A stretch of 64,000 nucleotides of DNA from Patescibacteria group bacterium (lineage in GTDB: Bacteria; Patescibacteriota; Patescibacteriia; Patescibacteriales; UBA12465), in NCBI GenBank assembly GCA_028687275.1, contig JAQUAK010000001.1:356213-420212 (forward strand), given 5' to 3'. A model generated the notes under the pieces. The model was not told the origin of the DNA. It worked only from the letters and a program-made list of their open reading frames with translations, and made no database searches. Both the position numbers and the translations under genes were made by a program. Shown piece by piece: positions 16,169-46,692 of the stretch. Position 1 is the stretch's first letter. Every line of letters begins with the position of its first letter.

Positions 16169-16335
16169 GTTTTACTATTTTTATGTTAATGAACAGTTTG
16201 CCGGAAACTTCCGCTGCTCATGTTGATAATAATAGCATATTTTATGTTAATTGTCAAGGTCTTGTCAATAATCTTTAAACATAGCCTTAAGATTTGATTT
16301 TTTTCTTTATTTTTAGTACGATTAAGGTGTTAATC

Positions 16336-16692
16336 GGGGTAAGTAAGCGGCCGCTCTTTTGCGTTATATAACTCAAAGGGGAGGAAAGTCCGGACTTCAT
16401 AAAAAGGGCAGCGGATAATGACCGCCAAGAGTAATCTTAGGGAAAGTGCCACAGAGACAATACTATCTATCTTCATTGATAGAGAAAGGTGAAAAGTTAC
16501 TTGGTGTCCTTTAGGGCTACAAGTTTCGACCGTCGGTAACGACGTGTTCGTGGTAAACCCTGCCTGAAGCAAGAGCAAAGCCAGATGATGCGCAAGTATT
16601 TTTTGGTAAAAAGTAGCTCGCTTGACTTAATTGGTGACAATTAAGCTAGATAAATGGCCGCTCACGACAGAATCCGGCTTATCGCTTACCCC
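16336..16692 (+). ncRNA. rnpB: RNase P RNA (bacterial type)
   Basis: GAGGAAAGTCCGGAC (P4 5' strand), AGGGAAAGTGCCACAGAGA, GGTAAACCC, and ACAGAATCCGGCTTATCGCTTACCCC (P4 3' strand plus P1, pairing with the 5' GGGGTAAGTAAGCGG). Confidence 0.9.
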
Positions 16693-16744
16693 TGTTAATA
16701 TTTTTTAATAAAATATTAATTATTAAATCGCTTTAATCATCAGT

Positions 16745-18160: not shown

Positions 18161-18203
18161 TTAATTAAGGTTATTAATCTGCTGATTACTAACCTTTTAA
18201 CCA

Positions 18204-19346: not shown

Positions 19347-19350
19347 CTTT

Positions 19351-20493
19351 ATGAAGATAGGTGTTGATGTGAGGGTATTAATGGATAAACACTATAGCGG
19401 GGTATCTCAATATGCCTCTTCTTTACTACGGGCAATGATGCACTTGGATAAAGAAGACGAATTCCGTCTTTTTTACAATTCTTATCACGATGTTAGAGCT
19501 AATATTGGGACTTTTAATCATCCTCGTGTAATTACTAAGCGTACTCGTATCCCTAATAAAATATTTAACTACTGTCTACAAAAAGGCTTATCTTGGCCTA
19601 AATTAGATAAAGTTATCGGTGGTTCAGATATTTTTTGGTCGCCACATATTAATTTTACCAACCTTTCACCGCAGACAAAGCATGTTTTAACTATTCATGA
19701 TATTTCTTTTTTACACTACCCAGAATTTTTTAGTTATCGTAAAAATTTTTGGCATCGAGCTTTAGCTTTAAAAAAATTAGTGGATAAATGCACCGCGATT
19801 GTGGCCGTTTCGGAAAATACTCGTCGTGATATTATTGATCTATTAAATGTGCCTGAAGAGAAAGTGAGAACTATTTATTCTGGTCTTAATTTAAGTGTGT
19901 CTTTGCCTGGGCCAGATGAAGAGAAAAGTTTTTTTAATCGTCACGAGCTTAAATCTGATTTTATTCTTTATCTAGGCACAATTGAGCCAAGAAAAAATAT
20001 TGCTGGCTTAATTTACGCTTATAATCGTTTACGTGATAAGAATATACACCTAGTGGATGTGCAATTAGTTTTGGCGGGTGCTAATGGTTGGCGTAATCGG
20101 GCTATTTATCGTGCTTGGGAAAATTCTCCTTATCGCCGTGATATTAAATTCTTAGGTTATGTAACAGACAGAGAAAAAGAACTCCTTTATCAGCGAGCAC
20201 AAGTATTTATTTATCCTTCATACTACGAAGGCTTTGGCTTGCCCCCACTAGAGGCAATGGAACACTCTTTGCCTGTTATTACTAGTAATGTCTCTAGTTT
20301 GCCTGAAGTAGTGGGTACGGCAGCCTTGTCTATTAATCCCTATGACATTAATGCCATCGCTAAAGCCTTGGAATTAGTAGTGACAAACCCTGAGTTAAAG
20401 GCAAGCTTAATCAAGGCTGGTAAAGAGCAGATTAAACAATTTTCTTGGGAAAAAACAGCTAAAGAGTATTTAGAATTATTTAAGAGCCTCTAA
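19351..20493 (+). CDS. Glycosyltransferase family 4
   Basis: ATG 19351 ([10 protein letters not shown]) is preferred over the track start at 19315. [29 protein letters not shown]. Confidence 0.85.
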
Positions 20494-22044: not shown

Positions 22045-22074
22045 AAAAAAACCGCTTTTTTAGGCGGTTTTAAA
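22045..22074. terminator. Bidirectional terminator overlapping the 3' end of the minus-strand gene
   Basis: AAACCGC / GCGGTTT stem. The stop codon of 22060..22608 lies in the loop. Confidence 0.7.
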
Positions 22075-22608
22075 ATATCTTTCTAGTTTCTTATGACTAA
22101 GAATGCATAATAGAGGTGTAATGCTTATTAACTTGATATCTGTCCATAAATTTTTATTTTTTATGTACTCTATATCATGTCTAAATTTATTTAGAGTATT
22201 ACCATCATGGCCACAAAAAATTTGTCCTGGACCAGTTATGCCTGGCTTTGTTGCTAAACGGCAGCTTGGAAAAATCTCTTGTTTTTCTGGTGTATATGGC
22301 CTTGGCCCAACTAAATTCATGTCACCCCTTAAAACTATAAATAGTTCGGGAGTTTCGTCAATGTGAGTACAACGTAGAATTTTTCCGATAGGTGTTACTC
22401 TGCCGTTGTCATCCATTGTCCGGAATTTAAAATATTTAAAAGCTTGGCCATTTTGCCCGATTCTTATTACGGCTTCGCCATTCTTTTTTCTATGATAAAT
22501 TACTGGACCGCCTGAGCTAATTTTTATCGCCAGGGCAGTTAAGATCATAATCGGCATAAGTACTATTAAAAGTATTATGGCTATTAGATAATTTAAGGCT
22601 TTACTCAT
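22060..22608 (-). CDS. Short (182-aa) sugar phosphotransferase, Bac_transf catalytic domain only
   Basis: One N-terminal TM, then DETPELFIVLRGDMNLVGPRPYTPEK...KPGITGPGQ. Confidence 0.85.
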   Translation of the reverse strand: MSKALNYLIAIILLIVLMPIMILTALAIKISSGGPVIYHRKKNGEAVIRIGQNGQAFKYFKFRTMDDNGRVTPIGKILRCTHIDETPELFIVLRGDMNLVGPRPYTPEKQEIFPSCRLATKPGITGPGQIFCGHDGNTLNKFRHDIEYIKNKNLWTDIKLISITPLLCILSHKKLERYFKTA

Positions 22609-29226: not shown

Positions 29227-29363
29227 TCAAATTTTATTTTATTAATTCATAAATAAATTGTTAGGTGTCAAAAAATTTGTTATAATAGAAAAGATTGAAT
29301 CATCTTAAGTGATGTGTTTAAATTTTTTTATATTAAACCGGCTTGTCCGGAGGAAACAAGCTT

Positions 29364-30851
29364 ATGCCAAAATTAAAAAAAGAAACTGGCGCAAAAACTA
29401 GCGTTAAAAAAACGAAAAAAAAGACCGTTAAAAAAACGCCGGCTAAGTCAGTTGTTAAAAAAATAGATAAAACAGAGGATAAGCCTTTGCCTAAAGCAAG
29501 GCCTATTACTATTGATGTCATTGCTGATGACGAAGATATTTTATCGAGACAAAGTTTTTCATCTTTGCCAGAGGATAATGCCGAAGAAAGGGAGGGTATG
29601 GATGTACAGAAAAAATTCTTTTCTGATTTAGTAGCTGAAATTAAAGATAATAAAAATAAAAAAATGGAAGATAATAATTTACCTTTTCCAGCTGGTAAAA
29701 TCCCCACTAAGGTAAAGACTGCTAAATCTTTAGGTCTTTATCGTCGTATTGCTACACAGTTTATTTTGTTAACAGCAATCTTATTATTGGTAGTTGCCTA
29801 TTTCTTTTTACCAAGTTTAAAAATTTCTCTTCACCCAGCTGCTGAAGCAGTGGTTGACACTCTAAGTTTCCAGGTTGTTTCTTCAAATTCAGTTGAGGCA
29901 GAAACCAATGCTAGTCGTAGCATTACCGGTCAATTACGCAGCCTGCCTTTAAGCGCTGAAAAAGTTTATGAGGCTAGTGGTGAAGAAATTTTGGGTGAAG
30001 AAATAGCTGGAGAAGTAACTCTTTATAATGAGTATAATAAGGATCAGCCTCTAGTTATAAAAACTCGTTTATTGAGTCCAGACAATAAATTATTTAGAAT
30101 AAAAGAAGCGGTTACGGTCCCGGCTGGCGGTAGCGTTAAAGTTGCTATTTATGCAGATGAAGTTTCTGCTGAAATGGCAATCGCTCCGACTAGATTTACT
30201 ATTCCTGGTCTTTGGGTTGGTTTGCAAGACAAAATTTATGCCACTAGCGATAAAGCTTTTGAATATAAACATCAGATTAAATATTACGTAAAGCAGAGAG
30301 ACTTAGATCAGGCTATAAATGATATTAAGGCTACTTTAGACACCAAAGCTCAGGCAACGATTGATTCTTTGGGTGGCTCAGCCCAGGCCTTGGCTTATAA
30401 GCTGGACAAAGATATTACCACCATAGAGTTAGGAGCAAAATTAGGCGAAGAGACTCCGGAATTTACAGTTTCTGCTAGTAATAATTTGACTCTAAGCTTT
30501 TTCTCTAAGACTGAGGCTGAAGCTTTAGTTAAAGCCAAGCTCGCTTTCTTATTGCCGGATGATAAGAAATTGTCTGATTTCAATAGCGATGATATTGCTT
30601 ATCGCTTGGATTTGTTCGATGCTGACGCTGATGTGGCCACTGTAACCGCTAGTTTTAGAGGGAGTATGTCTTTACGCACCGATGCCGACATCATTGATCG
30701 GAGACAATTAGTTAATCTTAATAAGGCTCAAATTTCAGAATATTTGAAAGCCTATCCAGAGATTGATTCTTTTAATTTAGAATTTTTTCCCAGTTTTATG
30801 AATCGAGCTCCAAGCCTGTCTGATCGTATTAAAGTAGAGGTTGTGCAATAA
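29364..30851 (+). CDS. Hypothetical membrane-anchored protein with Lys-rich N-terminus
   Basis: ATG 29364 is preceded by GGAGGA (29349-29354). MPKLKKETGAKTSVKKTKKKTVKK..., one TM (FILLTAILLLVVAYFFL), and a ~330-aa extracytoplasmic region. Confidence 0.7.
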   Translation: MPKLKKETGAKTSVKKTKKKTVKKTPAKSVVKKIDKTEDKPLPKARPITIDVIADDEDILSRQSFSSLPEDNAEEREGMDVQKKFFSDLVAEIKDNKNKKMEDNNLPFPAGKIPTKVKTAKSLGLYRRIATQFILLTAILLLVVAYFFLPSLKISLHPAAEAVVDTLSFQVVSSNSVEAETNASRSITGQLRSLPLSAEKVYEASGEEILGEEIAGEVTLYNEYNKDQPLVIKTRLLSPDNKLFRIKEAVTVPAGGSVKVAIYADEVSAEMAIAPTRFTIPGLWVGLQDKIYATSDKAFEYKHQIKYYVKQRDLDQAINDIKATLDTKAQATIDSLGGSAQALAYKLDKDITTIELGAKLGEETPEFTVSASNNLTLSFFSKTEAEALVKAKLAFLLPDDKKLSDFNSDDIAYRLDLFDADADVATVTASFRGSMSLRTDADIIDRRQLVNLNKAQISEYLKAYPEIDSFNLEFFPSFMNRAPSLSDRIKVEVVQ

Positions 30852-30874
30852 AGAATAATAAGTTTATTGATTTT

Positions 30875-30905
30875 AAAAAAGATCGTTAATAACGGTCTTT
30901 TTTTA
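30875..30905 (+). terminator. Rho-independent terminator
   Basis: GATCGTT / AACGGTC stem (one G.U), T-run. Confidence 0.7.
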
Positions 30906-31025
30906 ATTTTAGATTACTGATATTGTTTAGTCTCATATATGCTATTGACAATTATACAATAAATTGATAAATTTTTTAGTTACAGAAAATCTGTAACGTG
31001 TACTTTACAAAAAAAAGCAAAGAAT

Positions 31026-31871
31026 ATGAGAAAAAAACTAATTTTTGGTGTGTTTTTAGTTATTGTGGTGACATTTTCACCTAATGCTAAGGCTCAATGG
31101 GAACCGGCAGTATTTGCCGGACATGGTTATATGACCGATGTTTCTGGTTATGGAAATTACACCTACCTCCAGGGAGGAATGGCTAAGAAAGTAAAATCTC
31201 ATCGAACAGGCTTGTTTTTAAGTACAGTTTATGTCGATGTGGATTTTAATAACTACCGTTACAGAGCAACTGAGGGTGGCATTGGTTTCTCTTACGACAC
31301 CTGGAAAAAAGTGTCTGAGAATTTTACCATATCCTTTTGGTTTAATCCGGCTGTCAAGTATTTTGCCGATCATGGTGAAAATTACTCCAACAGTGAGGAG
31401 GCCTTTCAACAAGATATTGGGGCCAATATTGTTACCGGTATTAATCTGAATGATAAGCTGAACCGCTGGTTCCGGAGTTATAAATTCCAGACCCAGTACC
31501 AGCAGCCTTTCTGGTCAGCGCGGCAAGGAACCTGGGCGGGCGACAACGGTTATCTGTCTGATAAAGTTAACTTCAAGGCAGTTAATAAAGTCTACCTAAA
31601 ATCCCAGTTCGAGGTGATTGTAAAAAAGATCACCACCTCTAAGCAGCTACAAATTGAACCAAAGTTAGTTGCTGGTTATCAACTCAACGGAGTTGGAGAG
31701 ATTATGTACGAAACTGGGGCTGGATTTGGCTTTTCATTTATGAAGGGCGACAGATACTACGAGGTGGGCTCATTTCAGTACCGGGTAAGAACCGGTCAGC
31801 ATGTACAAGAGCCACTAACCTTATTTGAGCTTGGTATTAATTTTATAAATACCTGGACACTCATATTCTAA
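31026..31871 (+). CDS. Secreted protein with outer-membrane beta-barrel-like features (compositional outlier)
   Basis: Signal peptide MRKKLIFGVFLVIVVTFSPNAKAQ. Aromatic/Gly-rich alternating strands. C-terminal ...INTWTLIF ends in Phe. G+C is 27/60 and 37/60 in lines 31441 and 31501. Confidence 0.7.
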   Translation: MRKKLIFGVFLVIVVTFSPNAKAQWEPAVFAGHGYMTDVSGYGNYTYLQGGMAKKVKSHRTGLFLSTVYVDVDFNNYRYRATEGGIGFSYDTWKKVSENFTISFWFNPAVKYFADHGENYSNSEEAFQQDIGANIVTGINLNDKLNRWFRSYKFQTQYQQPFWSARQGTWAGDNGYLSDKVNFKAVNKVYLKSQFEVIVKKITTSKQLQIEPKLVAGYQLNGVGEIMYETGAGFGFSFMKGDRYYEVGSFQYRVRTGQHVQEPLTLFELGINFINTWTLIF

Positions 31872-31954
31872 GAGCAAGTTATTACCCAGCTGAATAAAGG
31901 CTGGGTTTTTAATTGTTTTAAGGTTATCTTTATATTAGTCGATTCTTAAATATA

Positions 31955-31979
31955 AAAAAGCGGGTTTAACCCGCTTTTA
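31955..31979. terminator. Bidirectional terminator between convergent genes
   Basis: AAAAGCGGGT TTA ACCCGCTTTT. Confidence 0.8.
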
Positions 31980-31995
31980 TATTTTTATTTGTAAT

Positions 31996-32961
31996 TTAAA
32001 AAGAGAAGATGCCCAACATTCTACTTTTATTTCTGTCAACTTTCTTGATACTTGGTTTAGCCTTTAAGATATTAATAGCTTCTTGGTGAGTGGCCTGACC
32101 GTGGAGCATGGCGGCAATCGCCTTGCCTAAAGAGCTGGCTTCTTCAAGCGAACGCTGGTGCATATTACGACCAATGGCGAGGCCAGAAGAGCCAGTCTTT
32201 AACTGCCTGTCTAAATGTTTTAAAAGGGAGGCAGAGTCTTGTTTGCTCCCGCCTACACAAATTACTTTTGTCTTACCAGCCGCAGCTATTACTTCTTTGA
32301 AGGCCTCAGATTTCTTATCGCTAGTGGCTATTTTGTATGGATATTTAACTTTAACAAAATCTGCCCCTAGACAAGCGGCCACGCCAGCACCACCAGCAAT
32401 TAAATGTGGATCGTCTTCATTTTTAATCTTAGAATTACGAGGATACATCCAAATGATGGCTAAAAGGCCATTTTGATGGGCGACATTAATCATTTCTGCT
32501 GCTTCTTTTAGCATCTGTGCCTCCTGGCTACTACCTAAATAAATAGTATAGCCAAGTCCAACAATATTTAGTTTACTTTGTTTTTTAAAGCGGATAATCT
32601 TATCCATGTCTAGCCAAGCTGAACTAATTGCCTCATCTGTTTTTGAATTAAGCGGGCTCTTGCCGTTTATTTTGAGAATGAAGGGCAGCTGTTTATAGTC
32701 TTGTCCGTAGTGAGATAGAAGGCCAATGTGTGTAGCTAAAACTGCTCCCGGAACCTGAGCGGCAATTTTGAATAGATGCTCTGGATTAGCGTCTTCTGGA
32801 CTGATACCAGCTCCATAGAAGTCATTATTTAAATGCTCCACCTTCTGATCGCCAGCAAATAGAAATAGACGCCCAGTATTTTTAGTGGCTAGTTTATAGT
32901 TTTTTAAATAAGTTTCCTGTTGGCCCTTAGGCACAGAAAGAGGGATAGAAATTTTTGTCAT
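31996..32961 (-). CDS. Class I fructose-bisphosphate aldolase (DhnA/archaeal-type, DeoC/LacD superfamily)
   Basis: LFLFAGDQKVEHLN...GADFVKVKYP (Schiff-base Lys context)...ICVGGSK...GLAIGRN. Confidence 0.75.
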   Translation of the reverse strand: MTKISIPLSVPKGQQETYLKNYKLATKNTGRLFLFAGDQKVEHLNNDFYGAGISPEDANPEHLFKIAAQVPGAVLATHIGLLSHYGQDYKQLPFILKINGKSPLNSKTDEAISSAWLDMDKIIRFKKQSKLNIVGLGYTIYLGSSQEAQMLKEAAEMINVAHQNGLLAIIWMYPRNSKIKNEDDPHLIAGGAGVAACLGADFVKVKYPYKIATSDKKSEAFKEVIAAAGKTKVICVGGSKQDSASLLKHLDRQLKTGSSGLAIGRNMHQRSLEEASSLGKAIAAMLHGQATHQEAINILKAKPSIKKVDRNKSRMLGIFSF

Positions 32962-33026
32962 AAGACTTGGTTTATAAAGTTAAATATTTATGATATAATC
33001 AGAATATTCTTAATTATAACATAAAT

Positions 33027-33947
33027 ATGACAGATAAGGATAGAGTGAAAAAAGAAGCCAATCTAAATAAATATGAGGATTTAGAGGGCATGACCTTAAA
33101 CAAAATGAAACTTGGTTTATGGTTGTCTTTAAATAGAAAACGCATTTGGCGTTTTACTATAATTGCCTTGATGGCGGTCTCTGCTTTGATGTTGATCTAT
33201 TCGACTTATCATTATGCTCATTACTTTTTATATGGCCGACAAGCGGATAAAGATTTATTGAGCGAAGTCACTAGTAATCAGATTGATGTTAGCGCTTATC
33301 GTGAGGCCACCAGTCCAACAGAAATGTTGATTGGTAATATTTCAACTTTTTCAGTGCAGGGTAAGTATGACTTTTTAATTCCTGTAAGCAATCCTAATCT
33401 TAAGCACACCGGATTTTTCAAATATTGTCTTCAGGATGAGGCTGATAACAATATTCTTTGTGAGAGTAATTTTATTTTACCAGGGGCTAATAAGAATATT
33501 ATTATTGTTGGACAGAAATTATCTGCCAAGCCACAGAATCTGAAGTTAGTTGTTAGTGATTTATTTTGGCAGCGCTTGAATGCTCATAATATTCCTGATT
33601 GGCAGGCTTATCAAAATGAACATTTAAATTTGCAGATTAGTAACTTAAAATATACCGCTCCCGAAAATGGTAGCAAAAGTCCTTTTCATACTTTAAGCTT
33701 TACGGCTACTAATTTTAGCTCTTATCATTTAGCTCGTTTGCCCTTAGACATCCTTCTTTATAATGGCAACTCAGTCAGTGGTGTTAATATCTATAATTTG
33801 GACAATTTCTTATCCGGGGAAGCCCGAGATCTTAGTTTTTCTTGGTTGGCAGCAGGGGAACGTGTTAGCCGAGTGGAAATTATTCCAGATGCTAATTTAC
33901 TAGATGCTCAGATTTATTTACCTTATCAGGGAGAAGTTCAGCCCTAA
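33027..33947 (+). CDS. Hypothetical single-TM protein immediately upstream of the SEDS gene
   Basis: One TM (FTIIALMAVSALMLIY) and a ~230-aa external domain. Its stop codon abuts the next ATG. Confidence 0.65.
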   Translation: MTDKDRVKKEANLNKYEDLEGMTLNKMKLGLWLSLNRKRIWRFTIIALMAVSALMLIYSTYHYAHYFLYGRQADKDLLSEVTSNQIDVSAYREATSPTEMLIGNISTFSVQGKYDFLIPVSNPNLKHTGFFKYCLQDEADNNILCESNFILPGANKNIIIVGQKLSAKPQNLKLVVSDLFWQRLNAHNIPDWQAYQNEHLNLQISNLKYTAPENGSKSPFHTLSFTATNFSSYHLARLPLDILLYNGNSVSGVNIYNLDNFLSGEARDLSFSWLAAGERVSRVEIIPDANLLDAQIYLPYQGEVQP

Positions 33948-35060
33948 ATGTTTATGTGGACAAGAATTAAGCTCTATTTGCAAGCTTTTGATTGGCTGCT
34001 CTTAGCCGCCGCTGTTTTGCTTTCAGCCTTTGGTTTAATGGAAATATATAGTGTTGCCCTAGGCCAGGGAGATCTCAATCTGCTTAATTTTTATAAGCAG
34101 ATTTTGTTTGTTAGTATCGGGCTAGTTTTAATGTTCATTTTTACTTTTATTGACTACCGTTTTTTAAAAAGCATACGTAGTTATCTCTATGTAATTGGAG
34201 CCTTGTTACTCGTGGCAGTTTTAGTTTTAGGTTCTGATATTCGTGGTACTCGTGGTTGGTTTTATATAGCCGGTTTCGGTATTCAGCCAGTAGAAATAAT
34301 AAAATTAATTTTATTAATATTTCTATCAGGTTATTTTGCTGACTTGGCCACTAGAGTTAAAACTTTGCGTCATTTTGTGATATCTGCTTTAAGTGTTGGT
34401 TTTTTAGTCTTTTTAGTCTTATTGCAACCCGATTTTGGTTCAGCTTTAATTTTAGGGGCCATTTGGTTAGTTTTAGTTATTTTAGCCGGATTTCCAAGAA
34501 AATATTTAGTCGCCATCTTTGCCTCTGCTTTAATATTATTTGTATTGGCTTGGTCGTTTTTCTTTAAACCTTATCAAAAAAACCGTGTTTTAACCTTTGT
34601 TAACCCTGGTGATAATGCCTTAGTGGAGGGTTATAATATATCTCAGGCTATTATTGCCGTTGGCTCCGGTTCTTGGTATGGTAAGGGGGTTGGCCTTGGT
34701 TCTCAGTCACAGTTAAAATTTTTACCGGAAGCACAAAATGACTTTATTTTTGCTGTTATTGCTGAAGAATTAGGTTTTTTTGGAGTCAGCTTAGTTCTAT
34801 TGTTTTTTTCTTTATATTTTAGCCGTTGTCTTGCCGCCGTGAAGCGTTTGCCCAATGATTTCAGTACTTATTTTGTTTTAGGGGCGATGGGCTTGATTTT
34901 TATCCAAATGTTTATTAATATTGGTATGAACATTGGAATTATGCCAGTGGTAGGTTTGTCTTTACCGTTTATCAGTTATGGTGGCAGTTCTATATTTCTT
35001 CTCTTCATTTTAACTGGTATTATTGAGAATATTATTATTAAATCAAAAATTAATTATTAG
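33948..35060 (+). CDS. SEDS-family peptidoglycan glycosyltransferase (FtsW/RodA/SpoVE)
   Basis: 10-TM profile, RGWFYIAGFGIQPVEIIKL, PEAQNDFIFAVIAEELGFFG, LPFISYGGSS. Confidence 0.9.
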   Translation: MFMWTRIKLYLQAFDWLLLAAAVLLSAFGLMEIYSVALGQGDLNLLNFYKQILFVSIGLVLMFIFTFIDYRFLKSIRSYLYVIGALLLVAVLVLGSDIRGTRGWFYIAGFGIQPVEIIKLILLIFLSGYFADLATRVKTLRHFVISALSVGFLVFLVLLQPDFGSALILGAIWLVLVILAGFPRKYLVAIFASALILFVLAWSFFFKPYQKNRVLTFVNPGDNALVEGYNISQAIIAVGSGSWYGKGVGLGSQSQLKFLPEAQNDFIFAVIAEELGFFGVSLVLLFFSLYFSRCLAAVKRLPNDFSTYFVLGAMGLIFIQMFINIGMNIGIMPVVGLSLPFISYGGSSIFLLFILTGIIENIIIKSKINY

Positions 35061-35107
35061 CCGCCGAAAAGCTGAGACTGTTTAGCCGAGGTGAGCCAGA
35101 TAAAAGT

Positions 35108-35734
35108 ATGGAATTAAAATTATCTGCCGAAGTTAGGGCAAAAGATGAAAAACTTGAAAAGGATTTAATCCCTGGAGTTGTCTATGGACGTGGTCTTGAA
35201 AGTCGCTCCCTTAAATTAAATTACAATGCCTTTGCTAAGGTTTTTGCAGAAGCGGGGGAATCAAACTTAATCACTTTAAATTTAGGTGGCAAGGACATTC
35301 CTGTTTTAGTTAAGGCTACTCAGAAACACCCACTTAAAAGCACTTACACTCATATTGATTTCTATGAAGTAAATATGAAGGAAGAAGTTAAGGCGGAAGT
35401 CCCGTTAGAGTTTATTGGTGAATCTAAAGTTGTTAAGGAGGGTAGTGGTATTTTCTCAGTTATTATTGATCAAATCGGAGTTGAATGTTTGCCTGGCGAC
35501 TTAGTGGATCACATTGATGTTGATATTAGTGTTTTAGCAGAATTTGGTGATGCCATTCGTTTAAGCGACATCGTTCTACCAAAAGGTATGACTTTAATGC
35601 AGGATGATACTGCTGTTGTTTGTATGGTTGAAGAGCCAAATAAAGTAGAGGAGGTTGTGAAGGAAGAAGTGGTTGAAGAAAAAGATGCTAAAGCCAGTGA
35701 AGGTGAGGTTAAGGAGGAAGAAGAAAAGAAATAA
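35108..35734 (+). CDS. rplY: Ribosomal protein L25/Ctc with acidic/lysine-rich tail
   Basis: ELKLSAEVR...IPGVVYGRG...HIDFYEV. C-terminal EEVVKEEVVEEKDAKASEGEVKEEEEKK. Confidence 0.9.
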   Translation: MELKLSAEVRAKDEKLEKDLIPGVVYGRGLESRSLKLNYNAFAKVFAEAGESNLITLNLGGKDIPVLVKATQKHPLKSTYTHIDFYEVNMKEEVKAEVPLEFIGESKVVKEGSGIFSVIIDQIGVECLPGDLVDHIDVDISVLAEFGDAIRLSDIVLPKGMTLMQDDTAVVCMVEEPNKVEEVVKEEVVEEKDAKASEGEVKEEEEKK

Positions 35735-35743
35735 ATTGAAAAT

Positions 35744-36844
35744 ATGGGAGGGAGGAGTAAAAATTATTTTACTAAAAAAGGAAAGGCGATTTTAATCGCC
35801 TCCTTTTTTGTATTATCAATTTCTATCTTAGGTCTATATTATTTTGTTTATGTGCCTGACTGGTCTTGGTTAAGAATTTTTTCACATATTCAAGAAAGTG
35901 AGGTTAATTCAGTCACCTCAACTGAAGAAATAATTTCTGATCTTCCTGCTGATGATATCTGTGACAGCTGTGTGCGTCGCTGGCTAGATGGAATACCAGT
36001 GCCAGCTGCAGAGGCTAATGTTTTTCCAGTGGCAGTTATGATTGATAATGATGTTTTAGCTCGTCCGCAGACAGGGCTATCTAAAGCCTCTTTAGTCTAT
36101 GAAGCACCGGTTGAAGGTGGCATGACTAGATATCTTGCTATATTCTCTGATAAGAGTGAGGTGGCGGCCATTGGACCAGTTAGGAGTGCTCGCCCCTATT
36201 TTGTTGCACTAGCGGCTGATTTAGAGGCTCTTTATCTTCATTGCGGTGGTAGCCCTGAAGCTTTAGATGATATCAAAAAGGCAAGTGTTTATGGTTTAAA
36301 TGAGTTTTATAATAGTAGCTATTTTTGGCGCGTTACTAATGGCACGCGAGAAGCTCCACATAATATTCTAACTAGTAGCGAGAGCTGGCAGACTTATTTA
36401 GCGACTCATGATTTTGATATTAATGAACCTGAGGCTTGGCAGTTTAAAAGCGAGGGCGAACATCTGTCAACGGCGGCTGATTTAAGTATTTATTTTAGCT
36501 CAAATTTTAGAGCTCTTTGGCGTTACGATGCTGAGCCTAATGAGTATTTACGTTATTTTAATGGTCTGGTTGGTCGTGATGATGATGGGGAAATTAGAGC
36601 CAAGAATATCATTGTTCAGTATGTAGAAAGTGAAGTTTTAGATCAGGCTGGACGTTTAAGAATTTCCTTAACTGGTAGTGGCGAGGCCTTGTTTTGCGCG
36701 GATGGCGAGTGTCAGTCTACTACTTGGATTAAAAAATTAGGCGCTAGAACAAAATATTATTTTATTAATGGGGAGGAGATAAAATTAAATCCAGGAGTTA
36801 CCTGGATTGAATTAGCTGATCAGAATACAAAGGTCTCCTATTAG
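35744..36844 (+). CDS. DUF3048-family secreted protein
   Basis: N-terminal TM anchor. VAVMIDNDVLARPQTGLSKASLVYEAPVEGGMTRYLAIF is the hallmark DUF3048 N-domain motif. Confidence 0.75.
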   Translation: MGGRSKNYFTKKGKAILIASFFVLSISILGLYYFVYVPDWSWLRIFSHIQESEVNSVTSTEEIISDLPADDICDSCVRRWLDGIPVPAAEANVFPVAVMIDNDVLARPQTGLSKASLVYEAPVEGGMTRYLAIFSDKSEVAAIGPVRSARPYFVALAADLEALYLHCGGSPEALDDIKKASVYGLNEFYNSSYFWRVTNGTREAPHNILTSSESWQTYLATHDFDINEPEAWQFKSEGEHLSTAADLSIYFSSNFRALWRYDAEPNEYLRYFNGLVGRDDDGEIRAKNIIVQYVESEVLDQAGRLRISLTGSGEALFCADGECQSTTWIKKLGARTKYYFINGEEIKLNPGVTWIELADQNTKVSY

Positions 36845-37713
36845 TTGCGCCTATTATTAAGTTCAATAAATCTCGTCTGACCGTTTAGATCAGGCGTTTT
36901 TTTAATATTTATGTCACTTAAATTATTAGCGCTTGCTTGTATTAATTTTTCTGCCTGCCAGGGATTAATTTCCATTACCAAATGAAAATTAAATTCATCT
37001 TGATACTTTTTTAGTTGTTGCAATAATTCAAGATAAAGCTCTAAACCGTCTTTACCGCCCAAAAGAGCAAGGTCGGGTTCAGCTTTAATGCTATTTTCTC
37101 CTTCTCTTTCTTCCTTGGTTAGATAGGGAAGATTAGCGGCAATAAATAGATACCTAATATTATGCCGCCTGATTAAATCTATAAACGGAGTAAATAAATT
37201 ACCAGCAAGAAAGTTAATTCTATTATCTAACCCATAAGCCTGAGCGTTGATTTTTGCTTGCTTAATAGCATCGGTAGATATGTCTCCGGCCATAAATGCA
37301 CAATTTTTAAATGCAATTTGGTCTTTTTTCTGTAACTCAGAGGCAATGCTTGTAATAAGAGCTCCGGAGCCAGTGCCAATATCTAGGCAAGCAGCTTTTT
37401 CTTGGCTTTTAACTATGGATTCTATAGCTATATCAACTATTAATTCAGTTTCAGGACGAGGAATAAGAACCTTGGGTGATACTTTAAAATTATAGTTATA
37501 GAAAGCTTGTTCGCTAGTAATATAGGCCAAAGGCGTACCCGTTAATAAAAGTTCGTAGGCTTGTTTAAAAAGTACTTCCTCTTGATCGTTTAATTCGTAT
37601 TCACTATGGCTCAGTAGCCAGCTAAGATCGCGCTTGCATACAAAAACCAGAAGACTTTTAATCTCCCGGCTATATTTTTTACTTAAATTAAAATTAGATT
37701 CTAGGGTAGACAT
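36841..37713 (-). CDS. prmC: Release-factor glutamine N5-methyltransferase PrmC/HemK
   Basis: IPRPETE, DIGTGSGA SAM motif, ANLPY (NPPY-type) motif. ATG 37713 lies 1 nt after the prfA stop (the track ORF extends to 37758). Confidence 0.85.
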   Translation of the reverse strand: MSTLESNFNLSKKYSREIKSLLVFVCKRDLSWLLSHSEYELNDQEEVLFKQAYELLLTGTPLAYITSEQAFYNYNFKVSPKVLIPRPETELIVDIAIESIVKSQEKAACLDIGTGSGALITSIASELQKKDQIAFKNCAFMAGDISTDAIKQAKINAQAYGLDNRINFLAGNLFTPFIDLIRRHNIRYLFIAANLPYLTKEEREGENSIKAEPDLALLGGKDGLELYLELLQQLKKYQDEFNFHLVMEINPWQAEKLIQASANNLSDINIKKTPDLNGQTRFIELNNRRN

Positions 37714-37714
37714 A

Positions 37715-38752
37715 TTAAGAACGTAAAGCTTTCTTAACTGCTTTAATAACATCCTCAATGTCGCCGTCTAAAACTGAATTTAGGCCATGCCAAGACTGTC
37801 CAATGCGATGATCTGTTAAACGGTCTTGAGGAAAGTTATAAGTTCTAATCTTATCACTACGATCACCAGCGCCAACCTGATCTTTACGAGCACTGGATTC
37901 AGAGGCCTGTCTTTCTTCCTCTTGTTTAGCCAAGAGTCGTGAACGTAAAACTTGTAGAGCTTTTTCTCTATTTTGATGTTGTGATTTCTGATCTTGGCAG
38001 CTAACGATAATGCCGGTAGGAATATGAAGAATACGAATAGCTGAATAAGTAGTGTTAACGCTTTGTCCGCCCGGCCCACTGGAACAGAAAGTATCAATAC
38101 GAATATCAGCCATATTTAAAGAAACATCAACTTCTTCTGCTTCGGGTAAGACTACGACAGTGGCAGTTGAGGTGTGAATTCGTCCTTGTTTCTCTGTTTC
38201 CGGCACACGTTGTACACGATGAGTACCAGCTTCATATTTTAAATTGCCAAAGCCACCAAGCCCTTTAATGGTAAAGATAACTTCTTTAAAGCCGCCGGTG
38301 CCGATTACACTTGAGGAAATCATTTCTGTTTTCCAGCCACGTCTTTCGCAAAAGCGTACATACATACGAAATAAATCACCAGCAAAAAGAGCCGCTTCAT
38401 CGCCACCAGTTCCAGCTCTTATTTCAATAATGGCATTTTTATGATCATTTGGACCTTGAGGATGGCGTTCTTCTTCAATTTCAGTGCTAACTTTTATTAA
38501 CTGTTCTTCAAGATTTAATAAATCTTCTTCGGCCATGCTTTTTAGCTCAGCATCATTTTCTTGATTCAGTAGTTCTTTATTATCAGCAATCTCTTTGTTG
38601 AGTCTTTCTTCTTCATTGATTAAACCAATAAGATTTTTCATAGCTGCATGCTTTTGGGAAATCTTAATCATCTCCTGAGGATCGCTCATGAGTTTAGGGT
38701 CGGATAATTTTTTTTCAATTTCGGCGAATTGATTCTTTATTTCTTGATACAT
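37715..38752 (-). CDS. prfA: Peptide chain release factor 1
   Basis: RVQRVPETE (PxT tripeptide of RF1), GPGGQSVNTT GGQ motif. The start at MYQEIKNQFAEIEKKL is preferred over the track start at 38785. Confidence 0.95.
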   Translation of the reverse strand: MYQEIKNQFAEIEKKLSDPKLMSDPQEMIKISQKHAAMKNLIGLINEEERLNKEIADNKELLNQENDAELKSMAEEDLLNLEEQLIKVSTEIEEERHPQGPNDHKNAIIEIRAGTGGDEAALFAGDLFRMYVRFCERRGWKTEMISSSVIGTGGFKEVIFTIKGLGGFGNLKYEAGTHRVQRVPETEKQGRIHTSTATVVVLPEAEEVDVSLNMADIRIDTFCSSGPGGQSVNTTYSAIRILHIPTGIIVSCQDQKSQHQNREKALQVLRSRLLAKQEEERQASESSARKDQVGAGDRSDKIRTYNFPQDRLTDHRIGQSWHGLNSVLDGDIEDVIKAVKKALRS

Positions 38753-38850
38753 ATAGCTATGGCTTAAAAAAATAATTAACTCCATTGATTGATTATTCGT
38801 TATCAGTAAAACTGAATAATCTGGAGTTAATTATTTTTAAGTCAAAATAT

Positions 38851-39180
38851 TTATTTTTTGGTGCCGAGGCTAACCTGGGCAATCTTTTTGATGTCCTTAG
38901 TCTTAACAACCACTTCCTTTTTGCTCTTAGCCTTAGCTCGGGCCGCTTTCTTAACTTTCTTGCCAGTAGTTACATCAGTCTTTGCATCTAATTTAGCTTG
39001 GAATTTCTCAACTCTACCACCAGTATCAATAAACTTCTGTTTACCAGTATAGAAAGGGTGACAAGCTGAGCAAAGCTCAACCTTAATCTCGGAGGCAGTT
39101 GAACCTGTTTTAAAAGTATTGCCACAGACGCAAGTTACTTGGCAGTCAGTATTGTATTTTGGGTGAATGTCTTTTTTCAT
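38851..39180 (-). CDS. rpmE: Ribosomal protein L31 (Zn-ribbon type) with ~40-aa Lys-rich C-terminal extension
   Basis: MKKDIHPKY...CVCGN...[24 protein letters not shown], then [37 protein letters not shown]... Confidence 0.92.
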
Positions 39181-39354
39181 ATAAATTTTAATTGAGGCTG
39201 GAAGGGCCCGTATAAATTGTTTCTTTTTTGTAGTAAAGGTACAGAAAAAGAAAGCTATTTTTAGTCTTCGCTGCTAGGATAATATCATAACTTTTAAAAA
39301 TAATCAATACCTGATATAATTATCACATCAATTAGGATTTCAGCTCAAATATTT

Positions 39355-40785
39355 ATGAATAAAGTCGCTAATATTGCTAAAAATACCTCCTATTTAACAC
39401 TTGCTTTAGTTATTCAGAAAGTCATTTCCTTTTCTTATTTTATTATTTTAGCAAGGTTTTTGGGTCTAGAATCTCTAGGGCAGTATTATACTGCCATTTC
39501 TTTTACCACTATCTTTTCTATCTTTATTGATTTTGGTTTTGCTAATGTGCTAACTAGAGAAGTGGCTAAAAATCAAGAAAAAGCTTCCGATTGGTTACGT
39601 AATGTATTGGGTATTAAACTAATTCTAAGCGTCGCCACTATAGTAGTGGCTTTAGCAGTGGCTTATTTTGCCTATGATTCTAAGTTATTGCTCTTAATTG
39701 CTGTCTCTTGCCTATCAATGTTCTTTGATTCTTTTACAACTACTTTCTTTTCAGTAGTTCGGGGTTTTCATAATTTAAAATTTGAAAGTCTAGCTTCTAT
39801 TATTTTTCAAGTAATTGTTTTAGTGCTTGGTTATGCTTTATTAAAAGCGGGCTGGCCTTTAGTTTTTTTACTGTTAGCTATTGTTATTGCCAGTTTGTTT
39901 AATTTTTTATACTCAGCGACGATTGTAAAAAAGTATTTACATTTAAAGATTAAACCACAACTAAATATCGAGAAGATAAAATTGATTTTTAATATTAGCT
40001 GGCCCTTTGCTTTGTATCAGATTTTTCAACGCTTATTTACTTATCTTGACACTCTACTACTAGGTTTTATCGCTGGCTATGGACAAGTTGGTCTTTACCA
40101 AATTGCTTTTAAGATTATTTTTGCTTTACAATTTTTACCAATGGCCTTTAATGCCTCTCTTTATCCGGCCATGAGTGCCTATTGGCAAAGTAATCGTGAA
40201 CAATTAAGAGTGACCTTTGAAAGAGCTATTAATTATTTATTAATTATTTCTTTGCCTATAATTTTTGGAGTCTTTGCGCTGGCCGATAAGATTGTGCCTT
40301 TATTTAAGGCTGGACCGGAGGCTATTTGGCCTTTACGCATTTCTATCTTAGCCTTATTATTTATTTTCTTAAATTTTCCAGTTGGGGCATTACTTAATGC
40401 GTGTGATCGTCAAAAACGCAACACTGCCAATATGGCGGCTGTTACTTTTATTAGTTTAGGTCTTAATTTATTCTTTATACCTAATTTTCAAGCCCTAGGC
40501 GCCAGTATAACCGTTTTAATAAGTAATTTTCTCATGTTAGTGCTTGGTCTATTTGCGATGCGTGGTTTAATTGTTTACCGTCCGGCCAAAAATGCACGTA
40601 CTTTAGTTTCTGCTTTTATTTCCGCTCTGCTTATGGCTTTAATTATATTTTTTGCTAAACAATATTTACAGGTATTTATTGCTGTTTTAATGGGTGGCCT
40701 AGTTTATTTCGGGGCACTCTTAATACTGGGCGGCATTAGAAAGGCAGACATCAGTAGTATTATTACTTCTTTTCGTCGCTCTTAA
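39355..40785 (+). CDS. Wzx-like polysaccharide flippase (MOP superfamily)
   Basis: 476 aa, about 14 TM, N-terminal IAKNTSYLTLALVIQKVISFSYFIILARFLG pattern typical of polysaccharide biosynthesis proteins. Confidence 0.8.
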   Translation: MNKVANIAKNTSYLTLALVIQKVISFSYFIILARFLGLESLGQYYTAISFTTIFSIFIDFGFANVLTREVAKNQEKASDWLRNVLGIKLILSVATIVVALAVAYFAYDSKLLLLIAVSCLSMFFDSFTTTFFSVVRGFHNLKFESLASIIFQVIVLVLGYALLKAGWPLVFLLLAIVIASLFNFLYSATIVKKYLHLKIKPQLNIEKIKLIFNISWPFALYQIFQRLFTYLDTLLLGFIAGYGQVGLYQIAFKIIFALQFLPMAFNASLYPAMSAYWQSNREQLRVTFERAINYLLIISLPIIFGVFALADKIVPLFKAGPEAIWPLRISILALLFIFLNFPVGALLNACDRQKRNTANMAAVTFISLGLNLFFIPNFQALGASITVLISNFLMLVLGLFAMRGLIVYRPAKNARTLVSAFISALLMALIIFFAKQYLQVFIAVLMGGLVYFGALLILGGIRKADISSIITSFRRS

Positions 40786-40788
40786 ATT

Positions 40789-41868
40789 ATGAAATTATTA
40801 CTTTGCACACTTGAATATCCACCACAAATAGGTGGTGTAGCTAATTACTACTCCGAATTAATTGAGGCCTGGCCAGAAACTGACACTTGGACAGTTTTAG
40901 ATAATAGTCAAAGAAAGCTATTGTCTAAATCTAAATTTTTTCCTTGGCTATCTTCAGTCTTATCTTTAATCAAGGAATATCGTCGTCATAATTATGATTT
41001 AATTTTTATTGGACAGGTATTACCACTTGGTACGGCAGCTTTAATTTCTCAGTTTTTTACCGGGTTTAAATACGGTCTTTTTTTTCATGGCATGGATTTT
41101 ACTTTTGCTTTGAAATCTAGCCGCAAGCGTTGGCTTCTACGTTTAATTTTAAAGAAAGCTAAAATAATTGTTTGTGCTAATTCCTATGTGGAAAAATTAT
41201 TAATTGAATTTGCGCCGAAGGTGGCTGATAAGACTAAGTTAATTAATCCTGGAGTAAAAAAGGGTTTAGTGGATGAAGAAGTTAAGCAATCTCTAGTTAA
41301 TAAGTATAATCTAACAGGGAAGAAGATTATTTTCTCTATTGGGCGCTTAGTTAAGCGTAAGGGTTTTGATCAGGTAATCAAGGCCTTGGAGGGGACTTCT
41401 TTCGATAATTGGGTTTATATCTTAGCTGGCGATGGGCCGGAATTAGAATCGCTTAGGTCTTTAGCCTTGGCTAGTAAAGTTAAAGATAAGATCATATTTA
41501 TTGGTCGTTTAAATGAAAAAGAAAAGTGGTCATGTTTGTCTTTGTGTGATATATTTATAACGACATCGCGTGATTTAGATGGTGACTTTGAAGGTTTCGG
41601 GATTGTTTATTTAGAAGCGGCTCTGATGTCAAAACCGGTTATTGCTGGTTTAAGCGGTGGTGTCTCTGATGCAGTTATTAATAATGAGTGCGGATTATTA
41701 GTAGATTCAGAAAGTATCCCTGCAATTGAAGAAGCTCTAAGTAAATTGTTAAAAGACGAAGACTTGGCCCGAACTCTAGGCGAATATGCTTGTCAGCGAG
41801 CAAAAACAAATTTTAATTGGAAACAACAATCCGAAAACTTATCTAAATTTTTAAAATCATTTAATTAA
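40789..41868 (+). CDS. Glycosyltransferase family 4
   Basis: MKLLLCTLEYPPQIGGVANY. C-terminal FEGFGIVYLEAALMSKPVIAGLSGGVSDAV. Confidence 0.85.
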   Translation: MKLLLCTLEYPPQIGGVANYYSELIEAWPETDTWTVLDNSQRKLLSKSKFFPWLSSVLSLIKEYRRHNYDLIFIGQVLPLGTAALISQFFTGFKYGLFFHGMDFTFALKSSRKRWLLRLILKKAKIIVCANSYVEKLLIEFAPKVADKTKLINPGVKKGLVDEEVKQSLVNKYNLTGKKIIFSIGRLVKRKGFDQVIKALEGTSFDNWVYILAGDGPELESLRSLALASKVKDKIIFIGRLNEKEKWSCLSLCDIFITTSRDLDGDFEGFGIVYLEAALMSKPVIAGLSGGVSDAVINNECGLLVDSESIPAIEEALSKLLKDEDLARTLGEYACQRAKTNFNWKQQSENLSKFLKSFN

Positions 41869-41891
41869 TTAGCAAATATTTTATATATCCT

Positions 41892-42593
41892 ATGATTTCT
41901 ATAATTATTCCTGTTTATAATCAAGCACAGAAACTAGCTAAAACTTTACAAAGTATTGCGAATCAAACTTTCTCGGATTGGGAATTAATTGTTGTTAACG
42001 ACGGCTCCAATGATAATCCAGAACAAGTGTTCACTGACTTTGTTGCTAAAACTAAATTAGAGAATCGTTTTATTTTTCTTAATCAAGTAAATCGAGGAGC
42101 ACCATCAGCTCGCAATCATGGTTGGAGAAAATCGCAAGGCGATTTTTTATTTTTTTGTGATGCCGATGCGGTCTTAAGACCCGAGGCACTTGCATTACTG
42201 TTTAATACTTTAAAGCAGAATTCTGAAGCTAGCTACGCCTACCCCTCCTTTAATTGGGGCAGAAAACTGTTTAAAGTCGGAGCCTTTAGTGCTGAAAAAT
42301 TAAAAAAAGGACCATATATTCACACTATGGCTTTGATTAGAAGGGAAGATTTTCCGGTAAATGGTTGGGATGAAAGTATTAAGAAGTTTCAGGATTGGGA
42401 TTTATGGTTAACAATGTTAGCCTCTTCAAAGAATGGGGTTTGGGTTGATAAAATATTATTTACTGTTGCTCCTGGTGGCACTATTAGCTCTTGGTTGCCT
42501 TCATTTGCTTATAAGTTGATGCCTTTTTTGGCCAGCGTTAAAAAATATAAAATAGCTAAGGAAATAATCGTCAAAAAACATGATCTTAAATAA
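41892..42593 (+). CDS. Glycosyltransferase family 2
   Basis: ISIIIPVYNQAQKLAKTLQSIANQTFSDWELIVVNDGSND and FCDADA (DxD). Confidence 0.85.
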   Translation: MISIIIPVYNQAQKLAKTLQSIANQTFSDWELIVVNDGSNDNPEQVFTDFVAKTKLENRFIFLNQVNRGAPSARNHGWRKSQGDFLFFCDADAVLRPEALALLFNTLKQNSEASYAYPSFNWGRKLFKVGAFSAEKLKKGPYIHTMALIRREDFPVNGWDESIKKFQDWDLWLTMLASSKNGVWVDKILFTVAPGGTISSWLPSFAYKLMPFLASVKKYKIAKEIIVKKHDLK

Positions 42594-43053
42594 GAAATTT
42601 TTAAAATACTGGCATCAGTACTGGCACTTAGGCTTATTGATAATTATTACTTCTATCATTGCATTAGCATATGTGAGTTGGCATTTAAATGCTTATAAAT
42701 CAGTTTCTATTCAAGCCGGAACTTGTAGTTTTATAGTTGATTTAGCTGATACGCCTGATAAGCAGTATCAAGGCTTATCTGATCGCCAGGAATTGGAGTT
42801 TAACCAAGGTATGCTTTTCGTTTTTAATGAAGTTAAGGATAAAACTTTTGTTATGCGAAATATGAATTTTCCGATTGATATTATATTTATACGTAATCAC
42901 AAAATTATTAATCTTTATCATGACTTAGTGCCAGAAGGGGGTCAGCCAAGAAGTACTTATCATAGCGGTGCTCCGGTTGATGCAGTTTTAGAAATCCCAG
43001 CTGGCCAAAGTCGTCGTTGTAATATTGGCGTCGGCACAGAAGTTATTTGGTAA
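42580..43053 (+). CDS. DUF192-family protein
   Basis: GLSDRQELEFNQGMLFVF...FVMRNMNFPIDIIFI...AVLEIPAG pattern of DUF192/COG1430. Confidence 0.75.
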   Translation: MILNKKFLKYWHQYWHLGLLIIITSIIALAYVSWHLNAYKSVSIQAGTCSFIVDLADTPDKQYQGLSDRQELEFNQGMLFVFNEVKDKTFVMRNMNFPIDIIFIRNHKIINLYHDLVPEGGQPRSTYHSGAPVDAVLEIPAGQSRRCNIGVGTEVIW

Positions 43054-43056
43054 TTT

Positions 43057-46604: not shown

Positions 46605-46675
46605 TCGGGGATCGTCTAATGGTAGGACAGCTGGTTCTGGTCCAGTCAATCGGGGTTCGAATCCCTGTCCCCGAG
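46605..46675 (+). tRNA. tRNA-Gln (anticodon CTG)
   Basis: Hand-folded cloverleaf: acceptor TCGGGGA/TCCCCGA with U1-A72 and G73, D stem GTCT/GGAC, anticodon stem GCTGG/CCAGT, loop TTCTGGT, T arm CGGGG-TTCGAAT-CCCTG. 71 nt, no encoded CCA. Confidence 0.9.
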
Positions 46676-46692
46676 CAGAATTTTTACGAAAA

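Follow-up and report, generated by a model that had tools for sequence, protein, structure and literature searches.

The window analysed here is a stretch of 64,000 nt from a Patescibacteria group bacterium (positions 356,213 to 420,212 of contig JAQUAK010000001.1), and the gene under study is an open reading frame (ORF) at 31026-31871 on the plus strand, which encodes 281 aa as the initial annotation had stated. The product is predicted to be exported and to fold into a compact 12-stranded antiparallel beta-barrel. What is new is that it belongs to a lineage-restricted, unannotated family of such predicted barrels, whose bacterial hosts are held to have neither the membrane nor the machinery that these proteins require. 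The locus contains the following features.

30875-30903, plus strand: intrinsic terminator of the upstream 502-aa gene, a 13-pair stem followed by a T run
30945-30973, plus strand: sigma-70-type promoter, TTGACA, 17-nt spacer and TG-extended TAAATT, matching at 10 of 12 positions
30979-30997, plus strand: 8-bp stem-loop, GTTACAGAAAATCTGTAAC, in the mRNA leader near the predicted 5' end; leader dG -10.3, z -2.9
31026-31094, plus strand: predicted Sec-type signal peptide, residues 1-23, with a signal peptidase I site AKA/Q, no lipobox and no Cys
31095-31871, plus strand: mature 258-aa protein and stop codon, predicted 12-stranded antiparallel beta-barrel
31446-31565, plus strand: G+C-rich core, codons 141-180; G+C at third codon positions (GC3) 0.65, overall G+C 0.53
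31533-31592, plus strand: the sole long loop, residues 170-189, between strands 7 and 8; conserved G.LSDKVNFKAVNK; predicted local distance difference test (pLDDT) 55-66
31842-31865, plus strand: short C-terminal amphipathic helix FINTWTLI, predicted from the AlphaFold2 model and the family alignment
31884-31906, plus strand: the barrel gene's own intrinsic terminator, ACCCAGC...GCTGGGT, then TTTTT
31956-31978, both strands: bidirectional terminator hairpin, common to the convergent DeoC-like gene
31996-32961, minus strand: convergent DeoC-like aldolase gene

The barrel gene is most likely monocistronic, because it has its own promoter and its own terminator and the orthologues are arranged likewise. 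The terminator at 30875-30903 marks the left edge of the transcription unit. The start coordinate given earlier for the gene, 30945, is the first base of the promoter -35 hexamer, and the TTGACA reported at 30945-30950 is indeed present, with the spacer and the extended -10 box listed above. Promoter-like sites are not enriched in the region (3 observed vs 4.2 expected by shuffling), and this one is credible because of its position and because the same arrangement occurs in orthologues: TTGAC[AT]-type promoters lie 80-130 nt 5' of the ATG in the homologue loci L003, L007, L011, L012 and L013, and by eye in L005. In three orthologues (the window, L003 and L009) a leader stem-loop of 8-9 bp lies directly 3' of the -10 box, about 45 nt before the ATG at 8001 in L003 and at 9986 in L009, and the stems pair despite their differing sequences (GTTACAG/CTGTAAC, GTTGCAAA/TTTGCAA and CATTGCTAA/TTAGCAATG). 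In L012 and L013 the element is missing or hard to discern; it may act as a stabilising hairpin at the 5' end of the mRNA. The single bidirectional terminator described previously resolves into two hairpins: the one at 31956-31978 is bidirectional and serves the DeoC-like gene, whereas the barrel gene's own terminator acts on the plus strand only. Most close-subfamily orthologues likewise have a terminator-like hairpin 3' of the gene.

The cleavable signal peptide proposed initially is supported by the sequence. It comprises RKK, a 13-residue hydrophobic core and the AKA/Q end, and predicted cleavage between MRKKLIFGVFLVIVVTFSPNAKA and QWEP fits the n, h and c regions and the A-x-A rule; homologues retain the ...AQ cleavage motif. 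AlphaFold2 models this segment as a low-confidence helix. The mature protein has 10% Gly, 18% Phe, Tyr and Trp together and no Cys, in agreement with the aromatic and Gly-rich strands noted before.

The AlphaFold2 model of the window protein, built from a 16-sequence alignment, has a pLDDT of 86 and a predicted template modelling (TM) score of 0.76. It consists of the signal helix, 12 strands and the short C-terminal helix. The strands are 13-21 residues long except for one of 10, with strands 1-6 at residues 24-38, 41-56, 59-74, 77-95, 100-119 and 125-143, and strands 7-12 at residues 149-169, 190-199, 209-221, 226-240, 243-257 and 260-272. Most connections between strands are turns of 2-5 residues, and the loop of residues 170-189 is, from the model, a candidate functional loop or plug. 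The model of P0037, a member of a distant subfamily with 24% identity, shows the same 12-stranded architecture (pLDDT 85), and both are predicted to close into an antiparallel barrel of even strand number. Foldseek searches against the PDB returned 162 matches at E<=1e-3 for the window model and 82 for the P0037 model, and in each case the best 50 (of 162 and of 82) are all outer-membrane barrels. The top matches of the window model are the 12-stranded autotransporter translocators Hbp and NalP (TM-score 0.50-0.57); the P0037 model finds the same best matches at TM-scores of 0.52-0.63 and root-mean-square deviations (rmsd) of 5.6-6.6 Å. Against a viral structure library, only barrels of the outer-membrane protein (OMP) type were returned. 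Two independent models and their structural matches thus support the predicted outer-membrane beta-barrel-like fold that the initial annotation had proposed.

The distribution of conservation over the two faces of the strands was analysed by taking alternate residues of the predicted strands across the alignment, the outward face being assigned from the pattern and not read from coordinates. One face is 60% aliphatic or aromatic and has few invariant positions. The other, polar face carries 32 of the 52 invariant residues, of which 14 are charged (E83, K111, D115, D130, K153, K192, E196, E211, K213, E229, R243, R253, R255 and E268). A conserved polar face combined with a variable hydrophobic one is the pattern of a transmembrane barrel and the opposite of the conserved core of a soluble one, so a barrel of membrane type is the likely reading of the models.

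The best structural matches of both models are the autotransporter barrels NalP (1uyn/1uyo), Hbp (3aeh), BrkA (3qq2) and EspP (2qom), with a Foldseek probability of 1.00, TM-scores of 0.50-0.63 and E-values down to 6e-9. They share the number of strands, the size (about 250-280 residues) and the closed antiparallel meander, whereas sequence identity is 8-13% and PF03797, the autotransporter beta-domain, gives no Pfam match even at E<=10. The window protein consists of a signal peptide and a barrel, without the passenger domain and the N-terminal linker helix of autotransporters, and its loops are much shorter. Its C-terminal amphipathic helix takes the place of their terminal aromatic beta-signal, and its host lineage, unlike theirs, has no known outer membrane or beta-barrel assembly machinery (BAM). 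The protein does end in ...TWTLIF with a terminal Phe, which had been read as a BAM-recognition signature. Across the 38 family sequences tallied, the last residue is aromatic in just 11 and Lys in 13, the tail consensus is ...INLYRLIKK, and the last 8 residues (273-280 in the window protein) are helical in both AlphaFold2 models instead of forming the last strand. The tail is not a terminal beta-signal strand; the ending is peculiar to this sequence, and by alignment and models the family does not carry the C-terminal beta-signal that defines BAM substrates.

Sixteen proteins were found at E<1e-56 among 5.8 billion proteins, and an exhaustive phmmer scan of 1.84 billion representatives returned no more than 9 clusters at 50% identity. 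When the distant subfamily served as seed, profile searches contributed just P0036-P0039, none of them from a diderm. The 39 relatives found are all of Patescibacteria or Falkowbacteria type; all named members are from Patescibacteria or Ca. Falkowbacteria, and no diderm homologue was found in either the representatives or the 5.8 billion proteins. Neither the single protein nor a 24-sequence profile matched Pfam, NCBIfam or PDB sequences, so the family is an orphan at the sequence level; none of the Pfam OMP_b-brl models reached E=1 on the 24 members scanned. One Ca. Falkowbacteria member of this family, P0027 (OIO06092.1 / PIR95671.1), bears the UniRef label 'Outer membrane protein beta-barrel domain-containing protein', and the representative of its cluster, P0019, is 38% identical to the window protein. 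The name is automatic and unreviewed and has no family definition behind it; an automated pipeline had therefore already flagged the fold in one member, although no publication dealing with it was found. A full-text search of the literature found no description of OMP-like barrels in the candidate phyla radiation (CPR). Five homologue-bearing metagenome-assembled genomes (MAGs) in third-party annotation records are titled 'uncultured Gammaproteobacteria bacterium' (L008, L009, L011, L013 and L014; CAYSZD01, CAYURA01, CAYHCB01, CAZTUJ01 and CAZXZR01, respectively). In L008, L009, L013 and L014 the genes around the barrel have the same order as in Ca. Falkowbacteria HGW-2 and in Patescibacteria MAGs, with proteins 40-90% identical, so these four titles appear to be wrong. 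In L011 the barrel alone was matched, sharing 81% identity with its counterpart in the Patescibacteria MAG L012. Orthologues spread through the same CPR clade, which the initial annotation had set against its own interpretation, are essentially what the searches found.

The strong shift in base composition claimed for the gene holds at synonymous sites and not for the gene as a whole. The 60-base line at 31501 has 37 G+C, more than any other fixed line of this length (mean 21.3, s.d. 4.9), and yet the whole gene, at 0.414 against an ORF mean of 0.36 (s.d. 0.03), ranks third of the 46 ORFs. GC3 is the highest in the window (0.426 vs 0.286, s.d. 0.04), and 120 codons end in G or C where 84 are expected from the amino-acid composition (z=5.0), an excess driven by TAC (0.63 vs 0.19), ACC (0.67 vs 0.18), GAG, CGG and CTC/CTG. 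The peak over codons 141-180 coincides with the most conserved motif, ND.LNRWFRSYK (residues 142-153), and no nucleotide-level conserved element was found under this core, third-position identity being no higher there than elsewhere. The G+C of the homologues tracks that of their host contigs, rising from 0.35 where the genome has 33% to 0.51 where it has 49%. A synonymous G+C excess is positive in 9 of 10 homologue loci and reaches z>=2 in 7; in most of them enrichment of NNC codons is common for Tyr, Thr, Phe and Asn. Third-position identity at identical residues between orthologues is 0.36-0.51, which corresponds to saturation. A bias that is kept across saturated lineages is a property of the gene, maintained by selection or by a gene-specific bias, and not the remnant of a recent import; the synonymous excess is a standing property of this family in low-GC genomes. 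In this particular lineage there may have been an older transfer from a higher-GC relative within Patescibacteria. The family is probably expressed well. High expression as the cause of the excess would fit its recurrence in orthologues, but the L25, ferritin and GreA genes of the window do not show such an excess, and the codon bias is explained only in part.

Raised synonymous G+C was also observed elsewhere in the window. A 373-aa ORF at 15047-16168 on the minus strand has the second-highest excess (z=4.0); it encodes a signal peptide and a central transmembrane segment and has no Pfam or NCBIfam match. The LexA gene (4694-5305, plus strand) and the DeoC-like aldolase gene have z-values of 2.9 and 2.7, so the excess is not unique to the barrel gene.

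The NCBI entry PHE20_01840, from a Patescibacteria group bacterium, is exactly this protein and lies on a contig of 593 kb. Over 29339-41871, across both junctions of the gene, the window is matched at 100% identity by a Logan contig from SRR22315507. A contig from the separate run SRR9030901 (L002) is 99.58% identical over 29343-31944 and covers the left junction, the whole gene and 73 nt downstream. Compared with the window, this L002 strain has 10 substitutions in the upstream 502-aa ORF (29343-30851, plus strand, 1.5 kb), whose product is an unknown membrane protein, and one synonymous change in the 0.85 kb of the barrel gene. The rest of the window carries the genes for DnaE, ParA/ParB, LexA, FtsW, RF1/PrmC, L25, L31, LysRS, GreA and LDH and the RNase P RNA, a content typical of a small genome.

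These data bear on two explanations that would make the gene foreign. In one, put forward in the initial annotation, the gene was recently transferred from a Bacteroidota- or Proteobacteria-like diderm and kept the donor's composition and a BAM beta-signal. The OMP-type fold, the window's highest synonymous excess, the terminal Phe and the homologue records titled as Gammaproteobacteria would all agree with such an origin, as would the ...AQ-type end of the signal peptide, which recalls Bacteroidota. Against this, no diderm relative exists among the sequences searched and no Pfam, NCBIfam or PDB sequence matches the protein; the contigs with gammaproteobacterial titles are syntenic with Ca. 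Falkowbacteria HGW-2 and Patescibacteria MAGs; homologue G+C follows the host genomes; orthologues show the codon excess again despite saturation at their synonymous sites; the family as a whole does not keep an aromatic last residue; and no mobile-element or tRNA genes were found flanking the barrel gene. Patescibacteria-type relatives, a recurrent bias and saturated synonymous sites largely refute a recent transfer, to which we assign very little probability. The other explanation is an artefact of assembly or binning, in which the gene or even the whole contig would have been wrongly placed in a Patescibacteria genome, and it has in its favour a composition unlike that of the neighbours. 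The gene, however, lies inside the 593-kb contig among DnaE, ParAB, FtsW, RF1, L25, L31, LysRS and the RNase P RNA, contigs from SRR9030901 and SRR22315507 reproduce one or both junctions and the gene, and four further contigs of Patescibacteria type, 88 to 809 kb long, have orthologues within them. Because the neighbours are ordinary and a contig from a different run matches, misassembly and contamination are very unlikely, with hardly any chance left to them; the earlier doubt about the taxonomy of the contig was not upheld.

The surroundings of the barrel gene differ between the close and the distant subfamily. Among close orthologues, those in L003 and L005 lie between a DNA-alkylation-repair gene and HU, and that in L007 adjoins FtsA, FtsZ and NrdR. 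In the distant subfamily a cluster is conserved in three divergent contigs (L016, L018 and L019) in the order GHL15, Wzy_C, GT4, a 430-aa protein, a Wzz-like protein, the barrel, a membrane-anchored protein, a PKD protein and a second GT4, followed by CorA in L016 and L019. Both barrel types occur in one cluster in L012, an 809-kb Patescibacteria contig (7959-20535), and in the same cluster of L014 (846-13286). In L012 the first barrel, 40% identical to the window protein, lies directly 3' of DUF4012, and the second lies directly 3' of a protein that exceeds the Pfam threshold for Wzz (PF02706, 28.9 bits vs 25.5). The barrel directly follows the Wzz-like co-polymerase in L012, L018 and L019, and the corresponding neighbour in L014 and in L016 is a homologue of this co-polymerase. 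The overall cluster can be written as DUF4012, (barrel-1), GHL15, Wzy_C, GT4, 430-aa protein, Wzz-like, barrel-2, membrane-anchored protein, PKD, GT4/DUF1972 and CorA. Several of the encoded proteins are not assigned to any family, and no outer-membrane polysaccharide export (OPX) domain was seen in the clusters examined. Within L012, the promoter and leader of barrel-1, TTGACAGATTTCGTAAATAATTATATACT...TCGAAATATTTTT, are nearly repeated before the next gene (TTGACATATTTCGCAAATTATTATACACT...TCGAAATATTTTCGA; 10840-10980 vs 9890-9985), which suggests a shared regulatory module within the cluster.

Of the genes in these clusters, only the barrel has a homologue in the window. The 502-aa protein was considered as a divergent DUF4012 and rejected, as it has no similarity to the DUF4012 upstream of the L012 barrel, and NCBIfam gave no match on the neighbours in the window or in L012. 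Genes of 266-279 aa near the homologues in L003 and L005 were rejected as paralogues by comparison; they are read as anti-sigma-like, no family search having been run on them. The window has polysaccharide genes of its own, namely two Wzy_C (one fused to TPR), two Bac_transf, Wzx, several GT4 and GT2, Acyl_transf_3 and a GDSL esterase, at 7860-10100, 16745-20493, 22060-22608, 39355-44532 and 54124-56026. This density of surface-polysaccharide genes is unusually high for 64 kb of a small genome. The link to polysaccharide is an association for the family and not a demonstrated role for the window copy.

We consider it somewhat probable (about 0.55) that the gene encodes an old resident, lineage-specific envelope barrel, a small channel or anchoring platform tied to the production of surface polysaccharide. 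The gene would be a long-standing member of a small family so far seen only in Patescibacteria, in Falkowbacteria-like lineages. Judging from the motifs and the comparison of orthologues, it would be transcribed alone, from its near-consensus promoter to its terminator, and the product would be exported by Sec and cleaved after AKA. The mature protein would then form a compact antiparallel barrel, its 12 strands joined by very short loops, whose outer face is predicted to be variable, hydrophobic and rich in aromatic residues and whose conserved lumen is predicted to be lined by about 14 invariant charged residues. Since such a hydrophobic surface must be buried in a hydrophobic layer, we infer that the protein resides in a layer outside the cytoplasmic membrane, where it may serve the envelope as a small channel or an anchoring platform. 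The weakest step is the connection of this function to Wzx/Wzy-type surface-polysaccharide production, which is suggested by association.

Several observations weigh against this interpretation. Patescibacteria are treated as monoderm (10.1101/2021.05.31.446380; PMC11809585; 10.64898/2026.03.03.709456), so that neither a layer in which a barrel could sit nor an insertase is known, and no Omp85/BamA, Lpt, Lol or TolC gene was found among the 46 ORFs of the 64-kb window. The fold is a prediction, and a 12-stranded barrel is narrower than the polysaccharide porins of diderms (16-18 strands). The window copy lies outside a polysaccharide operon, with the unknown 502-aa protein and the DeoC-like aldolase as its neighbours, and the neighbours of the close orthologues differ among loci. 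High expression is not demonstrated, because the L25, ferritin and GreA genes are without the codon excess, and the enrichment of GAG, CGG and CTG is atypical of translational selection.

Two other readings of the protein itself need to be weighed. It may be a soluble barrel, secreted or associated with the wall, that binds a hydrophobic ligand or a glycan, with AlphaFold and Foldseek picking up no more than a generic meander barrel. The missing sequence homology to any OMP family, TM-scores of just 0.5-0.6 with large rmsd, and the monoderm status, which speaks against a membrane site, would be in line with this. However, conservation falls on the polar, charged face and variability on the hydrophobic one; 12 strands of such length (13-21 residues) leave nothing to fill a hydrophobic lumen; the significant structural neighbours are membrane barrels throughout; and the composition, with its Gly and aromatic content and no Cys, is OMP-like. 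We therefore regard a soluble barrel as unlikely, and if it were correct, the finding would reduce to an unannotated family of secreted proteins. Alternatively, the barrel may be an effector that leaves an epibiont and inserts into the outer membrane of a Gram-negative host as a conduit for nutrients or for attachment. A membrane-type barrel in an organism without a known outer membrane, of small size and with very short loops, would suit this role, and small short-loop barrels such as OmpA, OmpX and PagP can fold into bilayers unaided in vitro. Parasitism of Gammaproteobacteria by some Patescibacteria (10.1101/2024.03.08.584096) also counts in its favour. On the other side, the gene has no linked system for secretion or delivery, and the position of paralogues in polysaccharide clusters, next to a Wzz-like protein of the inner membrane, suggests a place in the envelope of the producing cell. 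We know of no precedent for a monomeric barrel delivered between cells, and an effector is in our view a distinctly improbable outcome. An envelope barrel of the producing cell is the reading that we prefer.

Known systems resemble an envelope barrel of this kind in part. Diderm Wzx/Wzy pathways can pair with barrel porins of 18 strands and OPX proteins (Saidi et al., 10.1101/2022.02.11.480155). In these systems (Myxococcus WzpX/S/B, PgaA-like) the barrel gene likewise lies inside a Wzx/Wzy-type cluster and adjoins envelope components of the pathway, which in the present family means a Wzz-like co-polymerase. The porins, however, have 18 strands against 12 in this family and pair with OPX (Wza-type) in a true outer membrane, and the window copy lies outside such a cluster. 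The lineage-specific barrels of Thermotoga form a largely proteinaceous outer sheath and not a classical membrane of lipopolysaccharide (LPS) (PMC10160955), so barrels in an unusual outer layer are not without precedent. The putative OMPs of this toga are likewise Sec-exported predicted barrels without homologues in other phyla, and they have a hydrophobic belt such as is proposed for the present family. Thermotogae, in contrast, retain BamA, and cryo-electron tomography (cryo-ET) and proteomics have shown their sheath.

CPR bacteria have been grouped with the monoderm Chloroflexi in analyses of outer-membrane tethers and placed on the monoderm side of scenarios of outer-membrane loss (10.1101/2021.05.31.446380), and a genome classified as ABY1/'Falkowbacteria' was inferred to have a single membrane and murein (PMC11809585). 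The literature treats the CPR as lacking BamA, LPS, Lpt, Lol and tether genes (10.1101/2021.05.31.446380; PMC10160955), and beta-barrel membrane proteins, BamA and LPS serve as genomic markers for two membranes (PMC10160955). The CPR envelope annotations are explicitly not based on cryo-ET (PMC10160955, Fig. 4 legend). A speculative and rather unlikely extension of our interpretation is that some Falkowbacteria-like lineages have a second hydrophobic layer, which would be an outer membrane of lipid that is cryptic or else a sheath of lineage-specific barrels resembling the toga, with barrels that are assembled in the absence of a recognisable BamA and are coupled to a Wzy/Wzz polysaccharide pathway. 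If so, the statement that CPR bacteria are monoderm would not be universal, and barrels would be inserted independently of BAM in free-living bacteria. The family may be read as a sign of an unrecognised outer layer in this clade, of barrels used without an outer membrane and BAM, or of barrels deployed on a host, and each of these readings would alter how metagenomes are read for envelope type. It offers for this purpose a small (258 aa) and concrete test protein that is conserved and native in one clade of Patescibacteria, with paralogues in a polysaccharide cluster.

The window also contains three ordinary housekeeping RNAs, none of which adjoins the barrel gene.

16335-16697, plus strand: RNase P RNA class A, 225.6 bits
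23284-23368, minus strand: tRNA-Leu(CAA)
46605-46676, plus strand: tRNA-Gln(CTG)

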